Positions 18,060 through 19,238 of a stretch of DNA of 64,000 bases are shown here, piece after piece. The DNA is taken from IMG/VR virus record IMGVR_UViG_3300047564_001818; one strand, given 5' to 3'. Both the position numbers and the translations under genes were made by a program. The first letter of the stretch is position 1. Every line of letters starts with the position of its first letter. The notes beneath the pieces are model-generated. The model searched no databases. It had not been told where the DNA came from and saw only the letters and a list, made by a program, of their open reading frames with translations. The DNA comes from a virus. Its lineage: Duplodnaviria; Caudoviricetes.

Positions 18060-18485
18060 TGAAATGAAGCAATATATTTCATGTAGATTAAACTGGTCAG
18101 ACGGAACCTGTTTTAAGGTTCCGTCGTCTCTTGGTTACTTCATGTGAGTAGCACCAGCCAAGACATTGGAAGCAGGTTTTTAGTTTATACACCAACTCCA
18201 GGGACTCTAGCCTTTTCCCTACCTGCGCTGATTTCAAAATATAGTGTATGTGCTATAAAAATATTCTTAAGAAAAATACTTTTATAGGGGATACACTATA
18301 TTCCTATCCGTACTCTCGTTCCTAGTTGTACGGTGTTTAGGAGCAGTGGTGTTTTTTGGACAATAGCAGATGTCCTATACCAACAGATACCCCAAGTTTG
18401 TAGATAGGTCTATCAGTATGTTGCGTGTCCTGTATCCCTACAGGTTTTTCCACAGTGGTATTTCTAAACTGGCCCACCAACCTTA
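18060..18485 (-). ncRNA. Candidate large structured non-coding RNA (boundaries approximate)
   Basis: Lies in the longest intergenic gap; at least 8 helices, e.g. 18100-18125, 18129-18163, 18172-18226, 18238-18302, 18308-18333, 18358-18375, 18429-18444 (GNRA loop). Confidence 0.6.
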
Positions 18486-18489
18486 AGTG

Positions 18490-18807
18490 CTATTTGTTTT
18501 GCCTTAAAGCCTTGATGTTTTCACGTGCCTGATTAGTTTGTTTGTCTTGTATTAGTTTTCTTTTGCGTAATTCATTAAGTGCTAGTGTTTGTGGTTCGCC
18601 TTGAAATTTTTGAGCAATAAACTTTAAATATGATTCGTCTAAAGAACTTATAGGTTTGCCTTTATTTTTACCCTTTACAGGCCATAATCCTTTGTCACGC
18701 AGTCTATAATAATCTGCCTTTGCGTCGGCTTCTTGGGCTTGAGCTCTAATTTGATTAGCTAAAACTTTATTAGTTCTAGCCTTCTCCCAATCCATTTTTC
18801 TTGCCAT
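18490..18807 (-). CDS. Small basic protein with DUF3820/ExoX-C-like motif (105 aa)
   Basis: WPVKGKNKGKPISSLDESYLKFI resembles the (M)PFGKYKG-x-I-x-D-x-P-x-x-YL-x-W pattern; start overlaps the nuclease 3' end by 32 nt. Confidence 0.55.
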   Translation of the reverse strand: MARKMDWEKARTNKVLANQIRAQAQEADAKADYYRLRDKGLWPVKGKNKGKPISSLDESYLKFIAQKFQGEPQTLALNELRKRKLIQDKQTNQARENIKALRQNK

Positions 18808-19225
18808 GCTCTAACAATCTTTCTCTTAAAATGTTTGAACCGCCTACGCGAACGTTAATTATGCCGTTATAGTATTCGTCTGTTTCTAGTACACGCCTAT
18901 CAAACTGTTCTTTAGCCTCTAAATAACTTAACTCAGATCTACTTGTACACCAGTAGAGCACTTCTCGAGTGAACTTGTCTTCACCTAGTGTAGCAACATC
19001 AGCTTTGAGATTGTCTGAACTGCTCCAGTAATCTCGCCAATCGCTTTCTACTGTATACTTTCTACGATTCTTTTTGCCTTTAAGGGGTGGTTTGGACTTT
19101 TTAAACTGTGCAAGCTTCTTGCCTATATATTTTCTGTTGTCAGTGAGATTTGTTATCAAGTAAACAAAGCCTATGCAGCCTTCTGGTATTTCTTCTACTA
19201 GATTTCCTTGATAAGTCCATTGCAT
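18776..19225 (-). CDS. GIY-YIG endonuclease, T4 EndoII (DenA)-like (149 aa)
   Basis: GFVYLITN...KYIGKK, ESDWRDYWSSS, YLEAKEQF, YYNGII. Confidence 0.85.
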   Translation of the reverse strand: MQWTYQGNLVEEIPEGCIGFVYLITNLTDNRKYIGKKLAQFKKSKPPLKGKKNRRKYTVESDWRDYWSSSDNLKADVATLGEDKFTREVLYWCTSRSELSYLEAKEQFDRRVLETDEYYNGIINVRVGGSNILRERLLEHGKKNGLGEG

Positions 19226-19230
19226 GAACT

Positions 19231-19238
19231 TAGTTATT
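19231..19238 (-). promoter_or_regulatory. Possible late promoter variant (AATAACTA)
   Basis: One mismatch to AATAAATA, 5 nt before the nuclease ATG. Confidence 0.4.

Follow-up and report, generated by a model that had tools for sequence, protein, structure and literature searches.

Does a small phage nuclease work together with the large structured RNA that lies directly behind its gene, or are the two only long-standing neighbors? This question is raised by a locus in IMG/VR record IMGVR_UViG_3300047564_001818, a virus of the Caudoviricetes, from which a stretch of 64,000 nucleotides (nt) was analyzed and is called the window here. Between positions 18,060 and 19,238, a gene for a GIY-YIG nuclease, an overlapping gene for a small basic protein (orf105), and a non-coding element follow one another, and the original prediction for this locus combined them into one candidate ribonucleoprotein system in which the RNA would guide, scaffold, or inhibit the nuclease. 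It took simple adjacency as the null hypothesis, and this null hypothesis, in the form of inherited synteny, fits our results best. We consider it reasonably probable that the three are separate genetic units sharing one co-directional block, presumably of early or middle genes, rather than a dedicated ribonucleoprotein, and that RNA and nuclease are adjacent because their order was inherited. The parts of the locus that bear on this question are the following.

18776-19225, minus strand: stand-alone GIY-YIG nuclease of 149 amino acids (aa), catalytic domain only, phrog_447 family.
18490-18807, minus strand: orf105, a basic DUF3820-like protein of 105 aa, with a 32-nt overlap with the nuclease 3' end.
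18054-18494, minus strand: core of the twin-box structured RNA, about 440 nt, beginning at the orf105 stop codon (profile match E 6.1e-91).
18077-18235, minus strand: conserved 3' domain of the RNA, common to all variants (covariance model R1, 133.7 bits, E 4.5e-35).
18138-18146, minus strand: twin box 1, CACAUGAAG, in a hairpin loop.
18077-18085, minus strand: twin box 2, UACAUGAAA, in the 3' tail beyond the GGAACC/GGUUCC hairpin.
17988-18045, minus strand: 3' extension of the RNA, in which a purine-rich tract precedes two stable hairpins (at 18010-18028 and at 17988-18008).

The evidence that carries our reading comes from loci in which the linkage between nuclease and RNA is broken, and it is broken in both directions. 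Related loci (L numbers below) were collected in a nuclease-first sample, consisting of the best 80 of at least 596 viral contigs matching the nuclease, and in an RNA-first sample of 131 non-redundant RNA copies, each preceded by 700 nt of DNA or more; two of the scans were aimed at nuclease-free types, and percentages are not population estimates. An upstream nuclease gene is missing from 9 of the 131 copies; these nine lie in three unrelated contexts. R1, a covariance model of the 3' domain, detects the RNA at 103-122 bits in phages without the nuclease. Completeness is rated at 100% for four records (28-35 kb, one of them with terminal repeats) that carry one RNA copy each, at 103-117 bits, and no nuclease homologue anywhere in the genome. 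RNA homologues that occur independently of the nuclease are what the original prediction itself had named as evidence against a joint system.

In the other direction, the cultured phages P-SSM2, phiM12, and Melnitz have the nuclease gene followed immediately by another coding sequence and no RNA. R1 gave no match over the whole genomes of these three phages, with positive controls detected, and this absence is firm for variant-A-like copies only, since R1 is weak on the RNA type that we call variant B. By tblastn, 385 cultured phage records, mostly T4-like cyanophages, match the nuclease, and blastn found no cultured-phage DNA similar to the RNA. In four further loci (L059-L061 and L064), a nuclease of 70% identity is encoded away from the gp46 context and the RNA is absent, and orf105 is missing from most loci. 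That RNA and nuclease each occur without the other argues that they are long-standing neighbors rather than one RNA-protein machine.

Inside the T4-like clade, which consists of uncultured phages, the linkage is tight by contrast with these loci. All 73 gp46-context loci whose downstream DNA is long enough have the RNA behind the nuclease, as variant A in 45 and as variant B in 28, and a nuclease gene lies directly upstream in 122 of 122 T4-like RNA copies (GIY-YIG in 116, PD-(D/E)XK in 6). Over the whole RNA-first sample, the GIY-YIG gene stands just before the RNA in 116 of the 131 copies and ends no more than 30 nt from the RNA start in 90 of them. The RNA start abuts or overlaps the upstream stop codon, and orf105 is found in this slot only. 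In L132, L176, and eight further contigs, an unrelated PF24608 PD-(D/E)XK endonuclease (171-184 aa) stands in for the GIY-YIG nuclease, with orf75 on one side and the RNA on the other; its slot is at L132:1517-2071 (minus strand), L176:5250-5765, and in L204-L212. This is a non-homologous displacement of one small nuclease by another in one sub-lineage. It shows that the nuclease in front of the RNA is replaceable, with the twin boxes unchanged, and in this respect it speaks for separate units, but the swap could also mean that some nuclease is needed beside the RNA. On that second view of the swap, these observations weigh against three separate units. The co-occurrence and fixed order that had been suggested as a check therefore hold in the gp46 context, but RNA and nuclease each occur alone elsewhere.

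The same observations favor a partnership restricted to this clade, in which the RNA would bind, gate, or direct the nuclease encoded upstream, either keeping the enzyme off phage DNA or placing two protomers via the twin boxes, with orf105 as an accessory subunit. The exceptionless adjacency, the contact between RNA and stop codon, the non-homologous nuclease in the same slot, and the confinement of orf105 to the space between nuclease and RNA would all fit, as would the lack of a terminator between nuclease and RNA and the lack of a DNA-binding domain in the nuclease itself. We nevertheless consider such a partnership unlikely. It has to accommodate complete phage genomes with the RNA and no nuclease and hundreds of cultured phages with the nuclease family and no RNA, and the boxes are the same before GIY-YIG and PD-(D/E)XK genes, measure just 7-9 nt, and show no enrichment as targets across the window. 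Moreover, vertical inheritance suffices to explain co-occurrence within one clade. An RNA-nuclease machine, if real, would be a new class of RNA-associated nuclease, and the evidence that argues against it may spare effort at the bench.

The prediction that the element is a structured RNA was borne out by strong covariation on the gene strand. A search with a single sequence, followed by one with a profile, placed the element immediately behind the nuclease gene in the related loci. In an alignment of 22 full-length copies, RNAalifold gives 68 pairs in 11 helices, with 96.6% of cells paired and compensatory changes on both sides in 30 pairs; none of 500 shuffles reaches these values, and pairing falls to 35-43% in controls with slid partners. 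The RNA is read on the gene strand because it has many conserved G-U pairs, which are possible on this strand only, and an RNA from the opposite strand was rejected for that reason. A protein-coding element was likewise rejected: there is no consistent open reading frame (ORF), indels do not come in threes, and the covariation keeps pairs and not codons. Stop-free runs in the element span 30-95 codons across copies. No transfer RNA (tRNA) or transfer-messenger RNA was found.

The extent first assigned to this RNA has to be enlarged, as the core at 18054-18494 is carried on to about 17988 by the conserved purine tract and the two hairpins, which stand behind the RNA in every context examined, T4-like and nuclease-free. 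The hairpin region at 17988-18045 contains the inverted repeat I10. Among T4-like loci (L132, L176, L141, L047, and variant B; columns ~630-680 of alignment A2), the purine tract is followed by a hairpin GUUUGAGC-NNN-GCGAAAAC and a second hairpin, after which comes the late-promoter-like TATAAATA of the next gene; nuclease-free contexts have the tract and two hairpins with different sequences. The two hairpins are probably the transcript end. As predicted, no terminator-like minus-strand site was found between nuclease, orf105, and RNA, which makes co-transcription of nuclease and RNA likely. In this clade the RNA would then be an autonomous, portable non-coding RNA at an operon 3' end. Transcription that reads through from the upstream genes would probably produce it, with its end at the two stable hairpins.

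At its other end, the RNA starts within a few bases of the upstream stop codon or overlaps it, and the nuclease stop codon often lies inside the conserved RNA 5' end. In L069, L078, and other loci, and in the window at 18490-18497, the last codons and the stop of the upstream ORF are inside this 5' end (CAUAAGG). The variable C-terminal tail of the nuclease thus seems to owe its form to the RNA sequence. Repeated (T/C)AGGC(A/T) words are found in unrelated contexts immediately ahead of the RNA start (L183:2185-2290; L188:1590-1690; L141:2150-2320; L047:4300-4330; window 18495-18520), where they could act as a promoter or as a signal for processing or protein binding.

The alternative that the locus is a mobile nuclease-RNA element had been based on terminal 8-nt repeats that would fit an insertion, and it is weakened by our results. 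Direct repeats of 8 nt are at about chance level, with some 14 pairs expected by our estimate in 1.35 kb of AT-rich DNA and 18 short repeat families found. A mobile cassette delimited by them was rejected on this ground and because the sampled loci, which were not gathered by a gp46-first search, included no empty site. Related loci have the purine-rich tract behind the RNA as well, so it is not the scar of an insertion, and a mobile element's ends did not turn up.

A feature of the RNA that ordinary base pairing leaves unexplained is a pair of 7-9-nt boxes that co-evolve as identical copies and not as complements (alignments A1, A2, and A6). In an unbiased profile alignment, mutual information links the variable positions of box 1 most strongly with their counterparts in box 2, and in variant B the boxes show the further shared dinucleotides AC, AG, GC, GG, and GA. 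No complementary partner of the boxes was found, and no column stands out by mutual information as a third sequence pairing with both. Each box sits inside a longer module, and the two modules resemble each other, with the form (C/G)UGUGAC or GUCUGAC ... A(C/U)CU(C/A)-box; the boxes are identical before GIY-YIG and PD-(D/E)XK genes. Their spacing of 49-67 nt has no preference for multiples of three, and for lack of this three-base rhythm a hidden repeat-unit ORF between them, as in a DRT2-type concatemer template, was rejected. The box word as a repeated genomic target was rejected as well, as it shows no enrichment elsewhere in the window, with 4 matches where 3.9 are expected. A variable guide-like segment, for which a search had been proposed, did not turn up either: there is no long hypervariable segment, and free variation occurs only in helices that keep their pairing and in the two boxes, which vary in step.

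It is conceivable that the twin-box RNA and a small domain-only nuclease, of the GIY-YIG or the PD-(D/E)XK type, make up one unit within the T4-like clade. The boxes would then recruit or gate two protomers and aim cutting at or away from particular DNA, and nuclease-free phages would pair the RNA with another partner. Such a unit would be a new kind of RNA-controlled GIY-YIG nuclease, and we regard it as distinctly unlikely. If the units are separate, the RNA would present its two identical boxes to a putative reader. Identifying this reader would give a function to a long-orphan RNA motif and would reveal the role that a common accessory RNA plays during infection in lakes and oceans.

The twin-box RNA is a widespread, portable, large structured RNA of aquatic phages that moves between very different phage genomes and is only partly catalogued, as the 5' domain of some members is RF01718. 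The family is modular, with a conserved 3' domain (about 55 invariant positions) joined to alternative 5' domains, namely, the window type, a second type (L012 and L016), and variant B, which R1 picks up weakly and at the expected place. Rfam 15 has no credible match to the window, the best being a chance match to mir-1305 (E 0.019, with 25 bits where the gathering score is 63), and none to 12 related loci; group I and II introns, RNase P, 6S, GOLLD, ROOL, and HEARO were rejected because no Rfam match to them was obtained. The RF01718 family (Polynucleobacter-1), an orphan motif known from freshwater and estuarine samples (Weinberg et al. 2010, PMC2864571), scores 90.3 bits in L009 and 99.7 bits in L031, both sister loci (cut-off 37). 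In each of them it makes up the first 135-140 nt right behind the nuclease stop, with the twin-box domain downstream, and it has no match to window positions 17950-18520, to L016, or to L036 even at E 10. Among bacterial genomes, only three contigs of metagenome-assembled genomes gave a match, two of them with T4-like phage genes and the third without any window gene. Seven large contigs (L144, L150, L201, L231, L233, L244, and L245) carry the RNA with another 5' domain and no nuclease nearby, and the genes around it there resemble auxiliary metabolic genes: YccA-like, IscU-like, class II aldolase, cytochrome c, and glyA-like.

This distribution also bears on the idea that the locus is a replication module, in which the transcript would be an origin RNA, a pre-primer, or an R-loop former like ColE1 RNA II and the nuclease would nick nearby to start DNA synthesis. 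The position beside recombination and replication genes, the long and highly structured transcript with its purine tract and DNA-stable terminal hairpins, and identical boxes that could be repeated binding sites speak for this idea. However, the RNA sits at varied positions in small nuclease-free phages, its G-U-rich covariation and the invariant positions of its 3' domain point to a folded RNA product and not to a DNA site, and it is present as a single copy without an iteron array in the window, so that we hold a replication module to be highly improbable.

What, then, is the nuclease? It matches PF19835 (SegE_GIY-YIG) over residues 3-123 (E 1.7e-33, 115.9 bits against a cut-off of 25) and phrog_447 (E 2.1e-35), and FVY (20-22), YIG (33-35), R87, E103, and N120 are invariant in 29 aligned homologues. 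In comparisons of its AlphaFold2 model (predicted local distance difference test score of 81.5), the four best fold matches are all GIY-YIG proteins: the I-TevI catalytic domain (Z 7.5), the 5-hydroxymethylcytosine-specific enzyme PD-T4-3 (Z 6.7), UvrC-N (Z 5.4), and, in fourth rank, EndoII (Z 4.7, root-mean-square deviation of 3.9 over 82 residues); Foldseek alone gave weak rows only. Behind the catalytic domain at 3-123, no C-terminal DNA-binding domain is found in these proteins of 140-149 aa, and the C-terminal tail is short, variable, and partly overprinted by the RNA 5' end. To judge from its sequence and model, it is an active-looking, domain-only GIY-YIG enzyme with intact catalytic residues. 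The description as EndoII-like is true only loosely, in that both are domain-only GIY-YIG enzymes, since the fold is nearer to I-TevI and Seg proteins and no sequence in the PDB, EndoII included, matches at E ≤ 1. The homologue in Melnitz is located near nrdB, which we take to be where denA lies in T4. Cultured homologues (NC_006883.2, 176711-177148; NC_027204.1, 162711-163124) and phrog_447 are annotated as NAD synthetase, a label that looks like a propagated misannotation and to which the GIY-YIG domain gives no support.

Across loci, the nuclease is 66-87% identical, no lower than gp46, which points to a housekeeping role. We would therefore picture a protein-only, single-domain DNA endonuclease, of a family widespread in T4-like phages, that most likely serves phage DNA metabolism beside gp46 and gp47.

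A homing-type origin of the slot has to be weighed at this point. The place beside a conserved RNA gene could be a landing site for free-standing nucleases, with the resident GIY-YIG enzyme either domesticated or still selfish and cutting in or near the RNA gene of rivals. Its Pfam and PHROG matches are to Seg-type homing endonucleases, the slot is held by different nuclease families, and in L141 a 210-aa Seg-like GIY-YIG gene is inserted between the resident nuclease and the RNA. We still rate a homing-type locus as very unlikely: the nuclease lacks a C-terminal DNA-binding domain, is present in every usable locus and not sporadically, and is at least as conserved as gp46, and the sampled loci, which were not gathered by a gp46-first search, included no empty site. 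The L141 gene (L141:1380-2012, minus strand) is on the opposite strand, has a duplicated 3' piece of the resident nuclease gene downstream of it, and looks like a fresh mobile-nuclease insertion.

The third member of the proposed system, orf105, was described correctly as a K/R-rich protein of 105 aa that overlaps the nuclease: it has 25 lysine and arginine residues and an isoelectric point (pI) of 10.2. Relatives of orf105 in L007, L101, and L153 have two stretches in common, MA(R/K)xxDW at the N terminus and GIWPxxGKxxGKxLSxLxxxYL. As to the DUF3820 motif ascribed to orf105, three homologues match PF12843 (DUF3820/QSregVF_b) on GKxxGKxLSxLxxxYL below threshold (16.4-18.7 bits; cut-off 22), but the window protein itself has no Pfam match. 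A profile search found only 33 related clusters of about 100 aa, with PF12843 on record for one, and a close-relative scan with orf105 alone found nothing. In a profile scan of viral contigs, the homologue lies between nuclease and RNA in 14 of 14 loci, where it overlaps the nuclease 3' end and stops at the RNA start; gp46 in these loci is 51-81% identical to the window gp46. In unbiased samples, orf105 is rare (1 of 80 nuclease-first loci and about 3 of 119 RNA-first loci). An unrelated lysine-rich ORF of 87 aa fills its slot in L033 (L033:4422-4685). We suggest that orf105 was acquired in a minority of lineages and is translationally coupled to the nuclease, of which it may be an accessory.

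The surrounding genes complete the block, which runs on the minus strand in the order gp47, gp46, orf75, GIY-YIG nuclease, orf105, non-coding element, and orf200. This confirms the predicted arrangement of nuclease, orf105, and element as contiguous on one strand downstream of gp47 and gp46. The remaining genes are as follows.

21237-22250, minus strand: gp47-like Mre11-type phosphoesterase, which opens the co-directional block (Pfam Metallophos, E 3.7e-06).
19465-21240, minus strand: gp46-like Rad50/SMC ATPase (Pfam SMC_N and AAA_23, and a sub-threshold Rad50 zinc-hook match).
19241-19468, minus strand: orf75, a small basic protein of 75 aa (pI 9.9) between gp46 and the nuclease slot.
17342-17944, minus strand: orf200, a variable downstream gene of 200 aa with a late-promoter-like AATAAATA ahead of it, outside the unit.

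Synteny with gp47 is kept in most related loci, gp46 (51-90% identity) is upstream of the nuclease in nearly all T4-like loci, and orf75, for which no Pfam or PHROG family was matched, is present by tblastn in most loci, including those with the PD-(D/E)XK replacement. Beside the RNA, orf200 is patchily conserved, and the AATAAATA motif ahead of it resembles a late promoter. On the plus strand, gp26-like and gp51-like ORFs (window 16252-17345) lie tail to head. At the DNA level, the nearest cultured relatives are Methylophilales phages of the Melnitz group, with the match restricted to the nuclease gene. Taken as separate units, the parts would be arranged as a housekeeping nuclease slot that closes the gp47-gp46 block and a portable RNA gene behind it.

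Several known systems resemble this locus in part. Alike in layout is IscB/TnpB with its omega RNA (formerly HEARO), in which a nuclease gene is likewise followed by a large structured RNA on the same strand, whose start coincides with the 3' end of the gene or lies within it. In contrast to that system, the parts seen here are separable both ways, and there are no long variable guide and no transposon ends; an RNA-guided nuclease of the OMEGA or CRISPR kind fits poorly, as co-occurrence is not obligate and a long hypervariable guide is absent. We also know of no RNA-binding module in a GIY-YIG domain. Type III toxin-antitoxin systems have tandem short RNA repeats upstream of an endoribonuclease toxin, and a ToxIN-like system does not fit because a single 440-nt RNA lies downstream of a DNA-type GIY-YIG nuclease here, without a tandem array.

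Among GIY-YIG enzymes, I-TevI and the T4 Seg proteins share fold and catalytic residues with the nuclease, which differs from them in having no DNA-binding tail and no sporadic distribution. T4 EndoII, at about 140 aa, is likewise domain-only, but the fold match is weak and there is no sequence match. The free-standing homing endonuclease SegB, which lies beside the tRNA gene cluster of T4, offers a parallel for a GIY-YIG gene next to a conserved RNA gene in a slot that attracts other nucleases; unlike SegB, the resident nuclease is universal in its clade, strongly conserved, and without a DNA-binding domain.

For the RNA, the nearest catalogued relative is Polynucleobacter-1, which is the 5' domain of two sister loci behind the same nuclease gene, whereas the window RNA, L016, and L036 carry other 5' domains and the 3' twin-box domain is absent from Rfam 15. 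GOLLD, ROOL, and OLE are large "ornate" orphan RNAs that are often carried by phages. The twin-box RNA is like them in its length of several hundred nt, its many helices and many invariant unpaired bases, its presence in phages, and its movement between genome types, and it differs from them in that it has no match to those Rfam families, is smaller, and carries a pair of boxes that stay identical to each other.

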